DNA from: a virus
DNA length: 64,000 nt
Virus genome (UHGV): UHGV-1342921
Reading direction: 5' to 3' (one strand)
This document shows, piece after piece, positions 1 to 8,422 of the stretch. The first letter of the stretch is position 1. Every line of letters begins with the position of its first letter. A model generated the notes under the pieces. It searched no databases, was not told the origin of the DNA, and saw only the letters and a list, made by a program, of their open reading frames with translations. The position numbers and the translations under genes were made by a program.

Positions 1-1
1 A

Positions 2-262
2 AATACTTTTTATGATTGGTCAAAGCCTAGTTTAGATCATATTCTCCCTAAATCGAGAGGCGGAAGTTGTGACATTTCAAATTTACAAGTCCTAACGGTC
101 TTTGAAAATCTCGCTAAAAGAGATATGACATGGGAAGAATGGCAAGACTTTAAACAAACAACTCATACACAATCTGATTATTTTATAGAAAACATCTTAA
201 AAAGATATAGAGAAAAACAAAACAATGGCGAGAAAGAGGGAGGGAAGGATGACGACAACTAA
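2..262 (+). CDS. HNH homing endonuclease, C-terminal fragment (5' end outside the window)
   Basis: The frame-2 translation reads ...FYDWSKPSLDHILPKSRGGSCDISNLQVL.... This is the HNH motif H-x3-P-x-S-x-GG-x5-N-L-x2-L. The ORF ends at TAA 260-262, overlapping the dnaE ATG at 249. Confidence 0.6.
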   Translation, partial: NTFYDWSKPSLDHILPKSRGGSCDISNLQVLTVFENLAKRDMTWEEWQDFKQTTHTQSDYFIENILKRYREKQNNGEKEGGKDDDN

Positions 263-2751
263 CCTTCGATTAGACTATCATTGTCATAGTTCATTGTCGA
301 ATATCCGCTTACTTTGACTCGATCAATACTCTCGAAGATCTAACCAAACGAGCTGTCGAATTAGGTCTCCCTGGCATTGCGATTACTGAACACGAATGCC
401 TTGGTAACTCTATTGATATAGAAATCCTTCAAGAAAAAATTCGACAAGAGCATCCTAGTTTTAAGATTGTTCATGGCAACGAAATCTACCTTACAGACGA
501 TCGGTCTATGGGGCAAAAATACTATCATTTTATTTTGTTAGCTCTTGACGAGGTTGGTTTCCACATGATGTCCGAGCTGTCGTCTACCGCCTGGCTGAAC
601 GGGTATTTCGACCGAGGACTCATGCGCGTGCCGACTTTGAAGTCAGACGTCGAGGACGTAATCAAGCGTTACGGGCAAGGCCACATCTACGCAAGCCAGG
701 CTTGTCTTGGGTCGGAGTTAAGCACTTATGTCCTGAAAATGCACGACTGCCAGGAGAAGGGTGACAAAGAAGGTCGCAAGCACTGGCACGACGAGATCGT
801 CAAGTTTGTGAGCTGGTGCACGAACACGTTCGGCAAGGACAACTTCTGCTTTGAGATTCAGCCGTCAAGGTCGCACGACCAGTTGATTCTCAATAACATC
901 ATGCCGTCCATCGCAAAGGCGTTCAAACTGCCGATGTGCATTACGTGCGACGCCCATTACTTGACAAAGGAAGACGCCCCGATTCATAAGGCGTTCCTGA
1001 ACTCCAAGCAAGGCGATCGAGAGGTTGACGAGTTCTATTCTGCGACGTGGTTGCAGTCGGAGGATGAGATTCTTGAGCACCTTGAAGGCACTCCCGTCGA
1101 TTATGAGCAATGTTGCAAAGACAGCATGGCAATCTTTGATAGGGTGCAGGACTTCACCTTGAGGAAGCCACAAGAGGTGCCTGAAGCTCCCGTGCCGTTC
1201 AAGCCCAAGCGACATGTGGAATGTTCTAAATATCCCATCTTGTCGAAGCTGTATGAGTCTGACAGCGAGCAGGAAAGGTTCTGGGTAAACGAGTGCATCG
1301 GCCAACTGAAGAAACGAGGGCTGTATAACGACCAATACGTTTCAAGACTTGAAGAAGAAGCCGACGTTATGGATTATATCGGGCAGAAGCTCAACACCTG
1401 CATCTTCGCCTACTCACTGTTCATGCGCCACTATATCGACCTGATTTGGAACTGTGGCTCAACGGTTGGTGTCGGTCGTGGATCAGCTGGTGGCGGTTTA
1501 TCTCACTGGTTGCTTGGCATCACCGGCACAGACCCTATTATTAGTGGTAGCCATTTTTGGAGGTTTCTTAATAAAGAACGTGTCGAACTGCCTGATATTG
1601 ATATTGACGTGTGCCCATCCAAGCGAGAAGCTGTCTTCGAAGAGACACGCAAGGAGACTGGAGAGCTTGGTTGCGTGCACGTGTGCACCTATGGAACATT
1701 AACAACAAAGGCAACTATCAAGCTGGCTGGGCGAGGATACCGTTCCAAAGAGTACCCAAACGGCATCCCTCTTGAAGAGACTGAATACATCTCCTCTCTT
1801 GTGCCCTCCGAACGAGGATTTTTATGGACACTTAAGGACGTCATAAACGGCAATCCTGACAAGGGACGAAAGGCATCTGTGCAATTCAATGCAGAGATTG
1901 AGAAGTACCCTGGTCTCAAAGAGATTCTGTTCAAGATTGAAGGTCTTGTAGTTCAAGCAGGCATCCACGCAAGCGGTGTGATCTACCCGCCCAAGGAGGA
2001 CTATTACCGTTATGGACCTTTCATGAAGGCCAAGAACGGCACCATCATCACGCAGTATTCCCTGCACATGGCAGAAGCGGCAGGTGCCACCAAGATTGAC
2101 TGGCTCGTCACAGAAGTCCAAGAGGTCATCACCCAGTGCATCGAGGAGCTTCAGCAGGCTGGGTACATCGAGAAAGGCTTAACCCTGCGCGAGGCTTATG
2201 ACAAGTACGTCAGCCCTGATGCGATTCCTCTTGACGACCCTGACACTTGGGACGCTGTAGACCGAGCAGATGTCCTCAAGCTATTCCAGCTCGACTCTAT
2301 GATCGGTCGTCAAGGTGCAAGGCTCATCAAGCCTCGTTCAATCGAGGAGCTGACGGCTGTCAACGCATTGATTCGACTGATGGCAGACGACGGTGAGGAG
2401 CGCCCAATGGACAGGTACGTCCGTCACAAGGCGCATCCGGAAGAGTGGGAGAAGGAACTTGACGAGTACGGCCTGTCAGACGAGGAGAAGACTGTCCTAC
2501 ACAAGCATTTCGACTCAAGCTACGGCGTCTGCTACGCACAAGAGCAGATGATGATGGCATTGATGGACCCAGGCATTTGTGGGTTTGACTTCAAAGCCAG
2601 TAACCAGGCAAGAAAAATCGTGGCGAAGAAAAAGTTCGATCAGATTGAAAGCTTGCATAAGCAGATTGTTGAGAGTGCCGTTTCACCTGCTATGGCAAAG
2701 TATGTGTGGGACGTTGTCGTTAAACCTTCGTTAGGATACAGCTTCAACTAG
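249..2751 (+). CDS. dnaE: DNA polymerase III alpha subunit-like (DnaE family), exon 1. The first 22 codons (249-317) are in frame 0 and the rest (316-2751) is in frame +1.
   Basis: The N-terminal PHP domain reads MTTTNLRLDYHCHSSLSNIRLL then DSINTLEDLTKRAVELGLPGIAITEHE, which aligns to DnaE HSGYSLLNSAAAVEELV...LALTDDH. The 508..2751 ORF continues with the polymerase core. The RBS is GAGGGAGGGAAGG before the ATG at 249. The reading frame breaks at 312-318. Confidence 0.8.
312..318 (+). other. CTT TGA C heptamer. Either a prfB-like +1 ribosomal frameshift site or a 1-nt T-homopolymer indel inside dnaE.
   Basis: Frame 0 terminates at TGA 315-317 immediately after CTT. Reading GAC in the +1 frame gives ...IRLL-D-SINTLEDL, which matches the conserved PHP-domain alignment. 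Confidence 0.4.
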
Positions 2752-3018
2752 AGGAGCCTTTTACCGGTGACGGTAATAGCAAAGCTACTTAACTGCGGGA
2801 ACTTCTTTAGAGCCTATAACTACCAACCGTGCGTGGCGACATACATGGGGCAGAGGGTAACGCCCGAGATATGGTAACAAGGTTATAGGATTAGAAAATC
2901 CGCAACGCCACCTCTGGCTGTTAGACAGAGGAACGCCCAGAGACTACCACGTAGCCTTCTCTACAAGAGAAGATGGTATAGTCCAGACCGCAACACATAA
3001 GTGGCTGGGGAGACCCAG
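2750..3018 (+). ncRNA. Group I intron (ORF-less, about 270 nt) interrupting dnaE. Boundaries are approximate.
   Basis: The conserved core elements are present: P TTAACTGCGGGAAC (2789-2802), Q AAAATCCGCAACGCC (2895-2909), R CAGAGACTACCAC (2938-2950) and S GAAGATGGTATAGTCC (2968-2984). They are followed by P9 hairpins, the last being CTGGG-GAGA-CCCAG ending at G3018. Exon 1 ends in U at 2749. Exon 2 resumes the conserved DnaE block NVHGYSYSIIGYQCAWLATHYP, which matches Bacillus subtilis DnaE RSHAVAYSMIGCQLAYLKAHYP. Confidence 0.75.
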
Positions 3019-4346
3019 TGCGGTATTGCTCAAACGTTCACGGATATAGCTACTCAATCATCGGCTACCAGTGCGCATGGCTTGCAACACACTACCCGAA
3101 GGTGTTTTGGAACACTGCATGCCTTCGAGTGGACTCGGGCGTTGAAGACGATGCAACGACAAGTTATGACAAGATTTCAAAGGCGGTCGGCAACATTCTC
3201 AACGCAGGCATCAAAGTGTTGCCGATTGACATCAACAAGTCGGGGTACATGTTTGAGCCAGACGAGAAGACACAGTCGATTCTTTGCGGTCTTAAAGCGT
3301 TGATCGGCATCAATGGCGACACTGTTCAGCAAATCATCGAAAACAGGCCTTACAGTTCGTTCGATGACTTCCGAGAGAAGGTGCCGCTGAACAAGACGGC
3401 GATGATTTCACTCATCAAGGCTCACGCATTTGACTGCTTTGACGTCAGATACAACGTCATGGTTCAGTACATCACCGAGCAGAGCGAGCCCAAGTCCAAG
3501 CTGACGATGGCTAACCTGCAAGGTCTTATTGACAGGAGCATGATTCCGGCAGACTATCAGTTGCAGATCAGGACGTTCGTTTTCAACAAGTCCTTGCGTG
3601 CCAACTGCAAATTCAAGGAATGGTACACCCTTGAGGGCAGATACTATCGTTTCTATGAGAAGTTCTTCGACATAGACGAGCTTGAGAGCGTCGGCGGCAA
3701 GTTCTGCATCTCACAAAAGAAGTGGCAGAAGATGTATACAAAGATGATGGAGCCTGTGAAGAAGTACATCACCGACAACCAAAAGGCCCTGCTTGAACAG
3801 TTCAACCTCACGTTGTTCAACGAGCAATGGAACAAGTACGCATCGGGCACTCGCGGTTCGTGGGACATGAGTTCCCTGGGCTTCTATTCCGCCAAGCACG
3901 AGCTGGACGGCATAGAGTACGACAAGTACGGCCTGTCGAAGTTCTCAAGCCTGCCCGAGGAGCCTGTAGAAGCCGAGTCGCGTGGCAAGTTCAAGATTTA
4001 CAATCTCACGAGGATCTGCGGCACGGTTGTGGCGAAAGACGACACTCGTTCGACCTTCACTCTCCTCACCCCGGATTCAGGCTCCGTCGACGTCAAGCTT
4101 CCCAGGGAGATTTACGCCCACTACAACAGGAAGATCGTGCTGGAGAACTCTGGCTCGAAGATTTCCGAGGACGGGTGGTTCACAAGGGGCACGCTTCTCA
4201 TGGCATGCGGTTATCGGCAGGGAAACATGTTCAGGCTAAAGAGGTACAAGAACACGTCAAGCTTGCTGTTGTATAACATGGCGATAACCAAGAGTGGTAG
4301 GATAATCTGCACCGGAAGCCGCCTCGGTGACGAAGACGAGGTATAA
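3019..4346 (+). CDS. dnaE: DnaE exon 2 (C-terminal part, about 440 aa). The start is approximate (2982-3033).
   Basis: The translation is ...NVHGYSYSIIGYQCAWLATHYPKVFW...GIKVLPIDINKSGYMF...IGINGDTVQQIIENRPYSSFDDF, which is the conserved DnaE finger/HhH region. The frame is open from 2982 and there is no convincing independent RBS. Confidence 0.8.
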
Positions 4347-4355
4347 GTTACATTG

Positions 4356-4385
4356 TTTGACTACAGCTCCGCTTTTGTGTTATAA
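4356..4385 (+). promoter_or_regulatory. Sigma-A-like promoter: TTGACT, 18-nt spacer, TGT TATAAT (extended -10).
   Basis: TTGACT lies at 4356-4361 and TGnTATAAT at 4377-4385. The AAGGAG RBS and the gmk ATG at 4428 follow. Confidence 0.55.
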
Positions 4386-4409
4386 TAATATTTCACAAGA
4401 GCGGAGCTG
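4362..4409 (+). promoter_or_regulatory. Perfect 11-bp inverted repeat (ACAGCTCCGCT / AGCGGAGCTGT) bracketing the -10 box. Putative operator.
   Basis: The arms lie at 4362-4372 and 4399-4409 and are centred on the TATAAT at 4380-4385. Confidence 0.4.
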
Positions 4410-4427
4410 TTTGTATGTAAGGAGAAA

Positions 4428-5022
4428 AATGAGACAGAAGATTCTGGCAATCGTCGGTCCTTCATGTGCCGGTAAAGACACAATCAAAGACAGGCTTGCG
4501 CTTATCGACAGCCATACGTTCCACGTTCCACAGCGCGTGACTAGCAGGCCTCGCAGGCCAGGGGAGAGGGACTCGGCGTATAGGTTCGTCACAAAGCGAA
4601 CGTTCAAGACCGAGATAAAGTATGGCTGCCTTGCCGAGTACGGGTGGTTCCGTGGATGGGGGTACGGCACCAGGATTGACGACCTCACCAACGATGACGA
4701 AAAGATCAACGTGCTCACGATGGACTTGAACTCCCTAAAGATGCTCAAGAGGAACCTCGGTGTGGCAGACATCCGCTGTGTCTATCTTGACGCGCCCTTG
4801 TCTGTCCGTCTTAAAAGGTACAAGGACAGGGACGGTGGAATGTCATCGTTTGAGATGTACAGGCGTGCCGTCTCCGACAGCCTTATGTACCGCAACGCCA
4901 TCGACGAGATTCTAAAGCTCGGCATTCCGCACGCCTACATCCCCAACGACAAAGGGTTGTACGGCAGGACAGACGAGGTGCTGTCTTTTTGCAAAGATTG
5001 GTTGAACGGTCAAAGGTTTTAA
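4428..5022 (+). CDS. gmk: Guanylate kinase-like nucleoside monophosphate kinase
   Basis: The P-loop is IVGPSCAGKDT. The guanylate kinase signature reads TSRPRRPGERDSAYRFVTKRTF, compare TTRxPRxGExDGxDYxFV. The RBS AAGGAG sits 6 nt upstream of the ATG. Confidence 0.7.
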
Positions 5023-5087: not shown

Positions 5088-6389
5088 ATGAAAGTTAAAA
5101 AAAGGAACGGCAATCTCGAAAAGTACGACTTAAAGAAGATCAGACACGCGATTGAGCGTGCGTTTGAGGACATCTACGGTCAAGAGACGTACACAAATGA
5201 CATGCAGGTCAACATCAGCGGATTAGCTTCAGCGACAGAAGTCCAAATTTGCAAGGTTGGGGTCGCAGATGTAGAGGATATCCAAGATGTGGAGGATATC
5301 CAAGACGCTGTTGAAGACGTGTTGATGCTCAATGGATATTATGAGGTGGCGAAGGAGTATATTCGATACAGGTATCTCCACGAGCTACGTCGAAATGAGC
5401 GAGAGCAAGAGAAGTTTTATGACAGCATCGGTGAAAAGCTCAAAGCTACCAACGTTCAGAACCAGAATGCGAATGTCGATGAGAAGTCCTTCGGTGGTAG
5501 AATGGGTGAGGCCTGTTCTGAACTAACCCGTGATTACGCTTTAAAAAACTGTTTATCCGAAATGGCAAGGAACAACCATCTTAATAACGAGATTTACGAA
5601 CACGACCTTGATCATTACCCCACAGGAGACCACAACTGCCTGTCTATTCCATTTGACAAGCTTTTGGCTAATGGCTTCAACACAAGACAAACCGATGTAA
5701 GACCTGCAAATTCCGTCAATACGGCGTTTCAATTGGTTGCCGTCATTTTTCAGCTACAGAGTCTTATGCAGTTTGGTGGGGTAAGTGCGACGCATCTAGA
5801 TTGGACAATGGTTCCATATGTACGAAAGTCCTTCTTAAAGCATTTTAAAGACGGAATGCTTTGGTGGTGTAAGAGCTGTGACAACAGCGATAAATATGCT
5901 AAATTCCTCCGTGAAGTAGAAGACGGCTTGTGGCCCGACACACTCTTTATTGAAGACGAGAGATACAAAGTCCATGATATGGCTTATCAATACGCGGTCG
6001 AAATGACCAAGAAAGAGACTTATCAAGCGGTAGAAGGCATGTACCACAACCTAAATACACTACAAAGTCGAAGCGGGAACCAGCTTCCCTTTACATCAAC
6101 CAATTTCGGCACATGCACGCTTCCTGAAGGTCGTCTTGTCATAAAAGCAATGCTAGAAACTTCGATTCGCGGTCTTGGCAAGCTTCATAAAACCAGTATT
6201 TTTCCCTGCACTATTTTCCAGTGTATGAAGGGTGTCAATCGAGCTCCTGGAGATCCAAATTACGACCTGTTCCAGCTTGCTTTAAAATCAACCTCTCAAA
6301 GGCTTTACCCCAACTATGCTAACGTAGATTGGTCTGGCAACGCTGGCTACGATAGAAACGATCCAAAGACCTACTTCAGCACCATGGGT
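5088..6389 (+). CDS. nrdD: Anaerobic ribonucleoside-triphosphate reductase NrdD, exon 1
   Basis: An ATP-cone reads KVKKRNGNLEKYDLKKIRHAIERAF. NrdD core motifs IYEHDLDHYP...HNC...GGVSATHLDWTMVPYV follow. The exon ends ...STMG (GGT 6387-6389), immediately before the conserved MGCR motif that resumes at 7484. Confidence 0.85.
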
Positions 6390-7483
6390 AAGCGTAAACT
6401 ATAGCTCATGTAAAACCTCCTTAACCTCGCCAGAGGGTGTGGGTTCTTAAACTCGCTAACGGTTAGGGCTCTTATGAGTTGAGACCGTGCTAAACACTCT
6501 AAAAATGTTGTTCTTTTCTGACTCTCTTGAACAAAAAAGGGGTACATACAAGAGAAAGCAGTTAGAAAGGACCAACATGTATATCTACAAAGTAACAAAC
6601 AGTTTGAACGGTAAATTTTATATTGGGCAAACGGTTCGAACTCCAGAATCCAGATGGGAACGTCATAAAAATGATGCCCTAGGAGATCGTCACCTTGATA
6701 CACATTTTGCGAGAGCTATTAGAAAATATGGCCCTGAAAATTTTACCATTGAAACAATTGACACTGCATCCTCTCAAGAAGAACTGACGAAGAAAGAACA
6801 TGATTGGATAGTTAAGACTCGGGCGGTAGAGAAAGGTTATAACGAAACTTCTGCTATCGAAAAATGTGGTGGTAACACCTACGAGTCAAAAACCAAAGAA
6901 GAACTTGCTTGTATTGGTGAGAAAATTAGAAAAACTAAACTTGGTGGCAACAATCCTCACTCAACAAAGGTAAAATGTAAAGACACTACCACGGGCGAAG
7001 AATTTCATTTTAATTCTCAAGTAGAAATGCAAAAGTTCTTTGGCGCTCCTAATCACCTGTTTATTTCACGACGTTGTCTTGGACAAGTAAAAAGTTTATA
7101 CAAAAAACGCTGGCTAATCTCTTACGAAGAAGGAGAGATTATTGCGAAGAACCATATTGGAAAAGGTTCAGAAAGAGCAACCGGCGTTTACGTAAAAGAT
7201 TTACAAACAGGGGAAAGTAAGTCTTTTCCCAGCTATTCCGATGCAGAGCGATATTTTGGACAGAAGGAAAGAGCTTTTAGTAGCAAAGCCTACAAAAGAG
7301 GCAATTCTTTTGTTTATAAAAGTAGATATGAAATTACAAAAATTTTAGAGTGAAAGTGTATCGACTATCCCTGATGAATGTAAGGGAGTAGGGCTAGAGA
7401 TAGGCACTAGCTCGAAACGGGAGGCTACCGTCTTATGAAGGTAGAAGATATAGTCAGTGCAGATGGTGACATCTGATAACACG
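6390..7483 (+). ncRNA. Group I intron in nrdD carrying a GIY-YIG homing endonuclease ORF
   Basis: Exon 1 ends in U (6389). R contains CGACTA at about 7365. S is GAAGATATAGTC at 7446-7457. The P9 hairpin CAGATG-GTGA-CATCTG lies at 7460-7475, and omega-G is at 7483. Splicing restores the conserved NrdD motif TMG|CRTANG...DGRGN. Confidence 0.8.
6577..7353 (+). CDS. Intron-encoded GIY-YIG homing endonuclease
   Basis: The N-terminus is MYIYKVTNSLNGKFYIGQT...RWERHK (GIY-x10-YIG, Arg, His). The RBS GAAAGGA sits 5 nt upstream. The ORF lies wholly within the intron. Confidence 0.8.
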   Translation: MYIYKVTNSLNGKFYIGQTVRTPESRWERHKNDALGDRHLDTHFARAIRKYGPENFTIETIDTASSQEELTKKEHDWIVKTRAVEKGYNETSAIEKCGGNTYESKTKEELACIGEKIRKTKLGGNNPHSTKVKCKDTTTGEEFHFNSQVEMQKFFGAPNHLFISRRCLGQVKSLYKKRWLISYEEGEIIAKNHIGKGSERATGVYVKDLQTGESKSFPSYSDAERYFGQKERAFSSKAYKRGNSFVYKSRYEITKILE

Positions 7484-8422
7484 TGTAGGACCGCCAATGG
7501 ATACGACATCAATGGCATGGCCCAGACAAAAGACGGACGAGGGAACATCTGTCCTGTCACTATAATTATGCCGACTCTTGCTATGGAAGCCGACCGAGAT
7601 GTAGAGAAGTTCATGGAACTTCTTGACAAAAAGATTCACGAAGCCAAAGACATGCTTTTGGAACGTTTTGAGTACATCTGCTCACAGTCTCCTGAATCGG
7701 GCAAGTTCATGTACGAGAACGGCACTATGGAGGGATATATTCCGGAAGAGGGTATCCGTAGCGCTCTCAAGCATGGTACGTTGGCGCTTGGCCAGTTAGG
7801 ACTAGCGGAAACGCTTCAACTGCTTATCGGAACAGACCAGACAACAGACAAAGGAATGGAATTGGCCAAGCGTATCGAGTCTTTGTTCCGCAAGCGCTGT
7901 GATGAGTTTAAGCACAAGTACAAGCTTAATTTTGGAGTTTATTACACACCAGCAGAGAATCTATGCTTTAAAGCTCTTAAAAAGTTTAGAGCTAAATATG
8001 GCGTTATTCCTAACGTGTCAGACAAAGATTTCTTTACTAACTCTATTCATTGTCCTGTATGGAGCGATTTAACAGTTATGGAAAAGATTGACATTGAGTC
8101 TCAACTCACAGGATATTCCAACGCGGGCTGCATCGTTTACGCCGAATTGCCATCAACCACTAAGAACAACCTTGAAGCACTTGAGACTATTGTAAATTAT
8201 GCAATGGATAAAGATATCCCTTATTTTGCCATCAACGTGCCGAACGACACTTGCCTTGACTGCGGATATTGCGACGAGTTCAACGACCATTGCCCAATGT
8301 GCGGAAGCACTCATATTCAACAGCTTCGTAGAGTGACAGGCTACTTAACTGGGAACTATACCACCGCGTTCAATCTCGGCAAGCAAGACGAGGTTCACCA
8401 TAGAGCCAAGAATGCAAGATAA
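7484..8422 (+). CDS. nrdD: NrdD exon 2, carrying the glycyl-radical and zinc-ribbon C-terminus
   Basis: The translation is CRTANGYDINGMAQTKDGRGNICPVTII..., compare E. coli MGCRSFL...DGRNNLGVISLNL. The C-terminus has CLDCGYCDEFNDHCPMCGS and the glycyl-radical motif RRVTGYL. Confidence 0.85.
   Translation, partial: CRTANGYDINGMAQTKDGRGNICPVTIIMPTLAMEADRDVEKFMELLDKKIHEAKDMLLERFEYICSQSPESGKFMYENGTMEGYIPEEGIRSALKHGTLALGQLGLAETLQLLIGTDQTTDKGMELAKRIESLFRKRCDEFKHKYKLNFGVYYTPAENLCFKALKKFRAKYGVIPNVSDKDFFTNSIHCPVWSDLTVMEKIDIESQLTGYSNAGCIVYAELPSTTKNNLEALETIVNYAMDKDIPYFAINVPNDTCLDCGYCDEFNDHCPMCGSTHIQQLRRVTGYLTGNYTTAFNLGKQDEVHHRAKNAR

Follow-up and report, generated by a model that had tools for sequence, protein, structure and literature searches.

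Organization of the dnaE locus

The window analyzed here is a 64,000-nt stretch of the virus genome UHGV-1342921, and the locus of interest lies at its left end, where an HNH-type endonuclease ORF runs into the gene for a DnaE-like polymerase. The features of the locus are as follows.

1-262, plus strand: 3' end (last 87 codons) of the HNH-type endonuclease ORF, with the motif …SLDHILPKSRGGSCDISNLQ… and the stop codon TAA at 260-262
236-251, plus strand: dnaE ribosome binding site (GAGGGAGGGAAGG, tract 236-248) and start codon ATG 249-251, read from the sequence
249-314, plus strand: zero-frame mini-ORF of 22 codons (MTTTNLRLDYHCHSSLSNIRLL), encoding the first PHP-domain strand with the HxH metal-binding motif
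309-318, plus strand: putative recoding site UUA CUU UGA C, with E-site UUA 309-311, P-site CUU 312-314, UGA 315-317 and C318
316-2744, plus strand: dnaE exon 1 in the +1 frame (DSINTLEDL…PSLGYSF), encoding PHP, polymerase core and fingers
2745-3028, plus strand: ORF-less group I intron of 284 nt, with the 5' splice site after U2744 and G3028 as its last base
3029-4346, plus strand: dnaE exon 2 (…SNVHGYSYSIIGYQ… to the C terminus), with the stop codon at 4344-4346

On the basis of its sequence, the region 249-4346 is predicted to encode the replicative C-family polymerase, of the SPβ YorL type, of a large uncultivated phage. The mature coding sequence joins 249-314, 316-2744 and 3029-4346 into a product of 1270 aa, which was aligned with an intact 1270-aa relative (P0011) without a single gap. 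Similarity to YorL extended over the full length, both exons being 37-38% identical to it, and exon 1 showed 37% identity to YorL and 93-95% to the relatives P0001-P0003. Near-identical relatives carried PF02811, PF07733, PF17657 and PF14579, in keeping with the PHP domain, pol III alpha core, fingers and HhH domains of C-family DnaE/YorL proteins. Among cultured phages, no match was obtained by megablast of window positions 1-4500, no phage above approximately 48% identity was obtained by tblastn with the proteins of the frameshifted clade, and blastn with the shift site itself returned only noise, so that no cultured phage with the site was found.

Frame break and group I intron

The original prediction, that the dnaE frame breaks at a prfB-type heptamer, was confirmed in its details at the 5' end of the gene. 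From ATG249 to CTT312-314, the zero frame comprises 22 codons, ends in …HCHSSLSNIRLL and is closed by TGA315-317, while the polymerase resumes with GAC316 in the +1 frame, which translates from G316 as DSINTLEDLTKRAVELGLPGIAITEHE…. When HCHSSLSNIRLL was fused to DSIN, the product matched HCHTDRSNIRLLDSTN of SPβ YorL without a gap. The extra base at the shift site is T315, and its removal gives SNIRLL/DSIN, collinear with SNIRLLDSTN of YorL and with the intact 1270-aa relative. The break falls on the heptamer CUU UGA C at 312-318, in which CUU is in phase with ATG249 and UGA is in frame. Because CTTTGAC occurred 29 times in the window against approximately 12 expected, the heptamer by itself is uninformative; what is non-random is that it sits on the frame break and turns up again in homologues.

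Other ways of reading past the stop were considered and rejected. Beyond TGA, the zero frame encodes no polymerase, which speaks against stop-codon readthrough and an alternative code, and the long ORFs of the window are intact in code 11. Termination-reinitiation was rejected as the +1 frame has no start codon near the stop.

The exact break, the UGA-C context and the +1 collinearity stood, but the expected run of approximately 1200 contiguous +1 codons did not, because a 284-nt group I intron interrupts it: the +1 frame closes at TAG 2749-2751, and the gene continues in another frame past the intron. Excision of the intron restores the frame and leaves a gap-free product, with a U before the 5' splice site and a terminal G, and the intron-less L004 and P0001 read through the same junction as GYSF/SNVH. 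Rfam returned nothing for the window at the gathering threshold; with relaxed filters only, RF00028 was matched on the intron at 27.3 bits (E 6e-5), below the gathering score of 50. Selfish elements abound nearby, as the group I intron in dnaE is accompanied by a GIY-YIG ORF that splits nrdD.

Recurrence of the shift site in other phages

A separate genome (L006), 94.5% identical to the window over the compared 5.4 kb (275 mismatches), carried the same TTT and an identical site. Searches with the pattern AAYATHMGNYTNCTTTGAYNNNATHAA recovered 31-33 dnaE 5' ends among 43 IMG/VR matches and at least 24 among the 80 metagenome loci listed of 108 matches, some of the latter being the same contigs as the IMG/VR loci. 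Two Firmicutes MAGs, assigned to Erysipelotrichaceae and Clostridium, carried the site as well, and it was present in approximately 50 assemblies from many studies. At the recovered dnaE loci, HxH…SNIRLL-TGA was followed by +1 D(S/C)IN…DHE, with the break at the same codon throughout, and every frameshifted homologue had a strong GGAGG-type SD and a start codon 17-25 codons ahead of the shift site. The frameshifted alleles fell into at least eight clades interleaved with intact alleles, and very close sister phages were found without the site. With a broader pattern that admitted other Leu codons before TGA, 10 extra loci were obtained, none of which was dnaE. No report of a dnaE/YorL frameshift was found in a full-text literature search.

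Two explanations had been offered at the outset, a trivial one-T indel and genuine +1 recoding. The conservation of the site in L006 and in dozens of diverged dnaE genes, together with the codon signatures described below, argues against the former and for the latter. Judged from these comparisons, the one-base break is neither a sequencing error nor the mark of a pseudogene, and the ribosome probably skips one base to make the polymerase.

Codon signatures and selection at the site

The codons around the break were compared between the 24 non-redundant frameshifted alleles and 47 intact alleles. CTT preceded TGA in all 24 frameshifted alleles and occupied the corresponding position in 9/47 intact alleles (p 7e-12); TTR (UUR) preceded CTT in 24/24 versus 23/47 (p 3e-6), and GAC came next in 21/24 versus 16/47 (p 2e-5), where the p values ignore kinship and the intact alleles had been selected for their similarity to the window protein. 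The invariant CUU, the UGA-C context and the weak UUR codon in the E site are the features that a prfB-type shift site should show. Shared ancestry of the 5' segment of a cassette, rather than selection, could account for part of the invariance of CTT.

Within the mini-ORF frame of the same 24 alleles, the entropy by codon position was 0.44, 0.45 and 1.09, and downstream of the site the third position of the +1 frame was again the most variable (1.34 versus 0.96 and 0.67). This pattern indicates that the mini-ORF is under purifying selection and that both sides are constrained, each in its own frame, with CTT fixed amid variable synonymous positions around it. Between L056 and its intact sister L019, 16/54 upstream bases differed, spread over 13 codons (hand count), with one conservative change from I to L.

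The expected lack of a Shine-Dalgarno-like stimulator was borne out, as no G-rich element lies upstream of CTT in the window or in the whole family; in all alleles, the shift is preceded by AAY AUY CGN UUR. RNAalifold on 19 frameshifted alleles gave 0 pairs and thus no conserved RNA structure, and the fold of the window at the site gave z = +0.48 with no hairpin. Where an SD stimulator and structure are missing, frameshift efficiency may be well below that of prfB.

HNH gene and cassette boundary

Three features of the locus lay beyond the original prediction, namely, the HNH gene ending at 262, the association of HNH genes with the frameshift and a cassette boundary that coincides with the extra T. 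The HNH ORF overlaps the dnaE ATG by 14 nt, out of frame, and the complete ORF encodes 314 aa in L006 (2003-2947). It gave weak profile matches to PHROG HNH and endonuclease VII families (E 4e-9 to 4e-4) and a Pfam HNH match below threshold only, with the motif DHILPKSRGG…N present; a PDB sequence search with the protein gave no useful match.

An HNH homologue immediately preceded dnaE in 12/24 non-redundant frameshifted loci versus 1/56 intact loci (p 5e-7, kinship ignored). The link is statistical and not obligatory: half of the frameshifted loci had no HNH gene, and L052 and L064 carry one beside an intact dnaE, which indicates that the insert is not the sole route to coexistence with HNH.

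Relative to L019, L056 contains a 727-nt HNH insertion, and the divergence between the two drops off exactly at the extra T, with 16/54 mismatches upstream and 0/54 just downstream against a background of 3.7 on average and 8 at most. Likewise, the window and L006 share an identical block of HNH and 5' dnaE sequence in otherwise diverged genomes, remaining identical for 270 nt past the site and diverging by approximately 7% thereafter. Presence/absence polymorphism and multiple insertions were observed in L056 versus L019 and its sisters and in L094/L103 versus L080/L082.

Longer inserts were found in close relatives (L004, L005, L007, L205 and L207), where 5-16 nt of several lengths were inserted at two nearby positions; in some relatives, inserts of 13-16 nt were accompanied by a hairpin and Ser/Ser codons. 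Pattern searches of IMG/VR for the 5-nt and 13/14-nt types returned the known contigs only, plus one more.

Discussion

Proposed decoding and origin of the extra T

The reading preferred here, to which we assign a probability of roughly 0.7, is that T315 is a cassette-borne plug beside an HNH homing-endonuclease gene, decoded by prfB-type +1 slippage and protecting its carriers. Ribosomes would initiate at ATG249 and stall while peptidyl-tRNA-Leu occupies CUU and the A site holds UGA-C, a poor termination signal. This tRNA-Leu would then re-pair on UUU, and translation would go on at GAC316, giving a full-length enzyme that includes the HxH residues of the PHP domain. We infer this ribosomal slippage as the decoding route from the signatures of the site.

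As to origin, the extra T would be the right-hand end of a mobile cassette rather than random damage. The cassette would consist of the HNH homing-endonuclease gene, a re-coded dnaE ribosome binding site and the first approximately 20 codons, and in many phage lineages it would have entered the intergenic region in front of dnaE. If T4 MobA/gene 60 is taken as a guide, the added base most likely destroys an endonuclease target in the very conserved SNIRLL/DSIN coding sequence. The presumed target is the T-less …AATATCCGCTTACTTGACTCGATCAAT…, whereas the native sequence has TTTG. An intact allele would thus be cut and the extra-T allele immune, so that carriers would be spared while insert-free competitors would be cut and converted. 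The cost would be a polymerase whose synthesis requires frameshifting and so is subject to RF2 activity at UGA.

A broader version, tentative and held at slightly under even odds, would place the longer inserts in the same scheme. Phage dnaE would then host a family of homing-endonuclease cassettes self-protected by out-of-frame plugs of 1, 5, 8, 13, 14 and 16 nt within HxH…SNIRLL/DS, all bypassed by the host ribosome rather than spliced out, the 1-nt plug of the window through prfB-like +1 slippage and the longer ones of its closest relatives through short hops from a UCC-UAG hairpin to UCR/NCC. If true, it would provide a natural series of recoding signals and a second, much larger example of the MobA/gene 60 type, and phage replication would be tied to host termination-factor activity. 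The 5-16-nt inserts are candidate new cases of translational bypassing.

Alternative explanations

The frameshift might instead be purely regulatory, tuning or timing polymerase synthesis and sensing RF2 or termination capacity as in prfB, with the HNH genes as incidental passengers at a favored insertion spot. The HNH-less half of the non-redundant frameshifted loci, which keep the site amid synonymous drift, would fit such a role, and UGA-C and UUR-CUU are the features that give prfB its RF2 sensitivity (PMC3711429). Nevertheless, the enrichment of HNH genes at frameshifted loci, the L056/L019 discontinuity exactly at the extra T, the absence of stimulators and the very close sisters that thrive without the site make this account unlikely. 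The coupling of replication to RF2 capacity, suggested originally as the purpose of the shift, is possible, but it is not the best-supported reading. It is more doubtful still that the extra T and the 5-16-nt inserts of the relatives are scars, i.e., repair errors or escape mutations at the cut site of attacked phages that survived where CTT GAC permits ribosomal correction and were not borne by a cassette. HNH-less frameshifted alleles in several clades, inserts of differing lengths at two nearby positions in close relatives and the CTT GAY already present in 9/47 intact alleles would agree with scars. Against this, the 54 nt upstream of the T are foreign in L056 (16 mismatches), and therefore the T came with the HNH segment; the identical HNH and 5' dnaE block shared by the window and L006 in otherwise diverged genomes points the same way.

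An inactive or N-terminally truncated polymerase, in which the 22-codon ORF is a decaying remnant and either an internal start yields an enzyme lacking the HxH strand or the gene no longer functions, is regarded as highly improbable. Gene callers do place internal starts in P0001-P0012, and the PHP domain is catalytically inactive in some DnaE proteins. However, the +1 frame of the window has no ATG, GTG or TTG between 274 and 508, yet the stretch 316-507 is strongly conserved at the protein level; the mini-ORF has kept its SD, start codon, open frame and HxH in at least eight clades, with variation mostly at third positions, and no second replicative polymerase gene was seen in the locus. There is a very small chance that the frame is corrected in the transcript, through slippage during transcription or RNA editing, or by a tRNA-Leu of the phage or host whose expanded anticodon reads CUUU. 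In favor of such a route, tRNA genes occur in the large phages of this group and stop-codon reassignment in some relatives, and the window covers 64 kb of a genome estimated at approximately 140 kb from related contigs. When a frameshift-suppressor tRNA was sought, however, ARAGORN found no tRNA gene in the window; moreover, a run of three T is too short for polymerase slippage, and the conserved in-frame UGA with its C is explained by ribosomal shifting and not by slippage, editing or a tRNA. Finally, gaining or losing one base in a T run is a classic type of error, and a homopolymer miscount in which TT was read as TTT was the first option raised for this locus. An artifact of sequencing or assembly is nonetheless scarcely credible, as an independent genome that differs by 5.5% across the 5.4 kb compared has the identical site, as do the approximately 50 other assemblies, a 3-nt run is not error-prone, and the codon biases are confined to the T-carrying alleles.

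Significance

If the cassette-borne plug is confirmed, an essential phage replicative polymerase would join the very short list of bacterial-type genes that depend on prfB-style +1 shifting, and a prfB-type site could work and persist without an SD stimulator. Moreover, the idea drawn from MobA/gene 60, that an endonuclease shields its own genome through an insert ignored by the ribosome, would move from a curiosity to a widespread strategy of gut and rumen phages. The systematic truncation of these polymerases by gene callers would also be explained, and annotators would gain a simple repair rule.

Comparison with known systems

YorL and the other phage C-family polymerases belong to the same family as the window dnaE. 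Interrupted relatives are known in this family, with inteins in P0019 and P0033 and HNH insertions in Enterococcus phage EF1. Introns, inteins and HNH interruptions are spliced out as RNA or protein or split the gene, whereas the 5' break of dnaE would need translational recoding.

The closest likeness in decoding is with prfB, the gene of release factor 2, whose shift-site consensus is CTT_TGA_C (PMC3711429). The dnaE heptamer is identical and in the same phase, placing CUU in the P site ahead of an in-frame UGA and its C, with the potential for +1 re-pairing on UUU; a weak A/U-rich E-site codon and conservation across many lineages are also shared. Unlike prfB, the dnaE site has no SD-like stimulator 3 nt upstream, and its product is a DNA polymerase rather than RF2, and therefore no autoregulatory loop exists. 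Furthermore, the dnaE site belongs to a phage gene, where it falls at codon 22, is polymorphic, being absent in close sisters, and is associated with a mobile endonuclease gene.

Compensated or "savior" indels, such as that in the G run of herpesvirus thymidine kinase, are beneficial indels that are tolerated since low-level frameshifting supplies enough protein (PMC5009743). The dnaE indel differs in being ancient, widespread and located on an optimized shift site rather than in a homopolymer, and the advantage proposed for it is immunity to a nuclease instead of a drug.

In origin, the dnaE locus resembles T4 MobA/gene 60, in which an HNH ORF is inserted beside or in an essential replication gene (bioRxiv 10.1101/2022.08.31.505936; PMC5009743), a parallel of gene arrangement. 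In both, a divergent version of the neighboring coding sequence comes with the cassette, which is closed by a non-coding insert for ribosome recoding, the endonuclease ORF and the downstream start overlap in different frames (for the MobA element, bioRxiv 10.1101/2022.08.31.505936), and multiple independent insertions with presence/absence polymorphism are seen. The two differ in that the dnaE insert is 1 nt instead of 50 nt and would be passed by +1 slippage instead of long-range hopping, and it has neither a take-off hairpin nor a nascent-peptide signal. A further difference is the target, dnaE in Firmicute-associated phages, and the host gene is not split into two polypeptides.

Frame break and reconstruction of the dnaE product

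The window was read and translated across the 5' end of dnaE, its C-family replicative polymerase gene. A strong purine-rich ribosome binding site (236–248) lies before ATG249, which opens 22 codons (MTTTNLRLDYHCHSSLSNIRLL) that stop at TGA 315–317, and the +1 frame from G316 translates as DSINTLEDLTKRAVELGLPGIAITEHE…. The break sits on CTT TGA C (312–318), which confirmed the original prediction of a passage from frame 0 to +1 at this heptamer. The nearest characterised protein was the SPβ polymerase YorL, with 37% identity across both gene parts and the N terminus HCHTDRSNIRLLDSTNS. As this N terminus matches, a one-base deletion at the break restores SNIRLL-DS without adding or losing a residue. 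Counting both strands, the window contains 29 copies of CTTTGAC, compared with 12.3 ± 3.1 expected from shuffles; thus, the heptamer alone carries little meaning. Codon usage or TTGAC promoter boxes may account for the excess.

It had also been predicted that roughly 1200 codons follow in the +1 frame. This proved wrong, as the +1 frame ends at TAG 2749–2751 and the gene resumes in the third frame. The features of the region are as follows.

Features of the dnaE region (window coordinates)
Window start (5'-incomplete) to stop 260–262: HNH-type ORF, putative homing endonuclease, product ending …SLDHILPKSRGGSCDISNLQVLTVFENLAKRDMTWEEW…
249–314 + 316–2744 + 3029–4346: reconstructed dnaE coding sequence, product of 1270 aa
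2745–3028: group I intron, ORF-less, 284 nt, between GYSF and SNVH of dnaE

The intron matched Rfam RF00028 under the gathering score (27.3 bits, E 6e-5). U2744 lies directly before the 5' splice site and G3028 is the last intron base; relatives lacking the intron read GYSF-SNVHGYSYSII uninterrupted, and the exon junction is exact. When compared with the intact 1270-aa polymerase P0011 of a relative, residues 7–1269 of the reconstructed product aligned with zero gaps.

Recurrence and coding constraint

All nearest relatives in the protein search (90–95% identity) were annotated as N-terminally truncated products; accordingly, their DNA was inspected. The IMG/VR genome L006 showed 275 differences from the window over 5.4 kb, with the site exactly the same. 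A degenerate DNA pattern for N-I-R-L-CTT-TGA-Y-x-I-N was then searched. It gave 43 matches in IMG/VR, 31–33 of which were dnaE 5' ends depending on the filter used. Metagenome contigs gave 108 matches, with at least 24 dnaE 5' ends among the 80 listed; several of these lay on contigs that were also among the IMG/VR loci. Among the 38 matches in bacterial genomes (596 Gb), two were MAG contigs with a dnaE 5' end (Erysipelotrichaceae and Clostridium sp.) and 36 were chance. A broader search for any Leu codon before TGA returned no further dnaE case.

Every dnaE match shared one architecture: SD, start codon, …HxH(S/T)xYSNIRLL, TGA, and +1 D(S/C)IN…G(I/V)A(I/L)TDHE. The proteins downstream of the site were highly diverse, and a neighbour-joining tree built on the first 200 residues placed alleles carrying the extra T (frameshifted) in at least eight clades, interleaved with those without it (intact). 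For 24 non-redundant frameshifted alleles, nucleotide entropy at codon positions 1/2/3 was 0.44/0.45/1.09 over the 12 upstream codons in the ATG frame and 0.96/0.67/1.34 over the 12 downstream codons in the +1 frame. Thus, both pieces are protein-constrained, each in its own frame.

An artefact or dead gene was rejected, since the site is the same in L006, recurs widely and shows frame-specific constraint on both sides. Internal initiation was likewise rejected because the +1 frame of the window holds no ATG, GTG or TTG before 508, so that conservation of 316–507 would be left unexplained. The reading best supported by these data is that making the phage polymerase requires a real and conserved +1 ribosomal frameshift of the prfB type; that the break is real recoding rather than artefact or pseudogene is given a probability of roughly 0.85–0.9.

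Signatures of the shift site

The prfB consensus is CTT_TGA_C (PMC3711429). The dnaE site shares with it the CUU P-site codon, the in-frame UGA and the following C. The prfB shift is further favoured by an E-site codon that pairs weakly.

Codon choice in frameshifted and intact alleles (Fisher p)
CTT as the Leu codon before the stop: 24/24 frameshifted, 9/47 intact, 7e-12
TTA or TTG preceding CTT: 24/24 frameshifted, 23/47 intact, 3e-6
C after TGA (GAC, not GAT): 21/24 frameshifted, 16/47 intact, 2e-5

Intact alleles also use TTA, CTC, TTG, CTG and CTA at that Leu position, and the Asn, Ile and Arg codons beside the site differ synonymously among alleles. Ribosomal +1 slippage is the likely route of recoding. 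Unlike prfB, all dnaE alleles lack the SD-like stimulator; moreover, RNAalifold found no conserved RNA structure at the frameshifted alleles, and the local fold of the window site was unremarkable. Thus, judged from sequence, frameshift efficiency would be expected to be modest. No tRNA gene was found within the 64-kb window.

Association with an HNH endonuclease cassette

The HNH stop codon and the dnaE start overlap in different reading frames. The complete ORF, seen in L006, encodes 314 aa and matched phage HNH/endonuclease VII families, with Pfam HNH below threshold only. Among 24 non-redundant frameshifted loci with sufficient flank, 12 had a homologue (38–50% identity) immediately 5' of dnaE, compared with 1 among 56 intact loci (p 5e-7). 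Two loci, L052 (297–1139) and L064, are exceptions, carrying the homologue directly upstream of a dnaE without the extra T (…CGT TTG CTT GAT AGT…); the insert is thus not obligatory. Some frameshifted loci have no HNH gene, which would fit the homing-gene life cycle of invasion, fixation and gene loss.

The frameshifted locus L056 is nested inside a tight clade of intact alleles and differs from its sister L019 by a 727-nt insertion, the HNH gene. The 54 nt of dnaE 5' sequence after the insertion held 16 mismatches, falling by hand count in 13 codons with one amino-acid change (I to L), and the 54 nt past the extra T held none (background per 54-nt window: mean 3.7, maximum 8). This drop indicates that the foreign tract of L056 ends at the extra T. 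The window equals L006 between the HNH end and a point 270 nt beyond the site, after which the two are about 7% diverged. Its strong difference from L004 (93–95% identical) is confined to the ~216 nt immediately following the site.

Longer inserts and other mobile elements

The nearest relatives of the window carry different interruptions six codons upstream, just after the Ser codon of HxHxxS.

Out-of-frame inserts in relatives
5 nt: TCY-TRACC-AAY; L005 (~2925–2945), L013 (L168 grouped with it), L180
8 nt: TCT-TAAAAGCC-AAC; L207, about 2440–2460
13 nt: L004, 2940–2975
14 nt: L007 (with L186)
16 nt: L205/L209, about 2270–2300

The inserts of 13, 14 and 16 nt displace the frame by differing amounts, and the landing frame of L004 and L007 also contains a stop codon. 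Each of the three forms a 7–9-bp hairpin with compensatory changes, UCC in the 5' arm and UAG at or in the loop, next after the UCC Ser codon of HNHTCYS; a UCR Ser codon stands just before the resumed frame. They look like candidate short translational bypass sites, that is, hops rather than frameshifts. The 5- and 8-nt inserts, found in phages whose polymerases share only ~50–70% identity, are followed by an NCC triplet and then by the resumed frame.

Signs of stop reassignment were seen in relatives rather than in the window. Seven in-frame TAG codons in the L056 HNH gene (1730–2380) suggest a TAG-reassigned phage reading TAG as Gln. The L207 HNH homologue (2170–2500) has in-frame TGA codons only, possibly read as Trp, and its dnaE plug uses TAA rather than TGA. 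This would fit a requirement that the A-site codon be a genuine stop.

In the window, nrdD (anaerobic ribonucleotide reductase, 5088–8422) is in two pieces, 5088–6404 and 7457–8422, between which lie a GIY-YIG endonuclease ORF (6487–7353) and a weak group-I-like match (7267–7476, 23 bits). Two readings fit this interruption: an intron that carries a homing gene, or the splitting of nrdD by a free-standing endonuclease. Among homologous phage polymerases, P0019, P0033 and P0118 contain domains of inteins and homing endonucleases (PF14890, PF05203); thus, depending on the phage, the polymerase gene harbours inteins, introns, HNH cassettes or recoding inserts.

Proposed role of the insert and comparison with known systems

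In the best-supported reading, the 1-nt insert marks the boundary of an HNH homing cassette, for which it is probably the determinant of immunity. As the selective reason for the site, endonuclease immunity is favoured only slightly. A purely regulatory role, as an RF2 sensor, is possible and compatible with the cassette model, and the extra T may possibly have originated as an escape scar.

No description of the dnaE CTT TGA C site was found in the literature, nor was a cultured phage carrying it; the site is therefore taken as a new form of known kinds. The T4 MobA element is described as pairing an HNH ORF with its own diverged copy of the adjoining coding sequence; a recoding insert closes the element on the right, and the ORF overlaps the start downstream in another frame (bioRxiv 10.1101/2022.08.31.505936; PMC5009743). 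The arrangement at dnaE matches this layout, and the site would bring together prfB-type frameshifting and MobA/gene 60 cassette logic.
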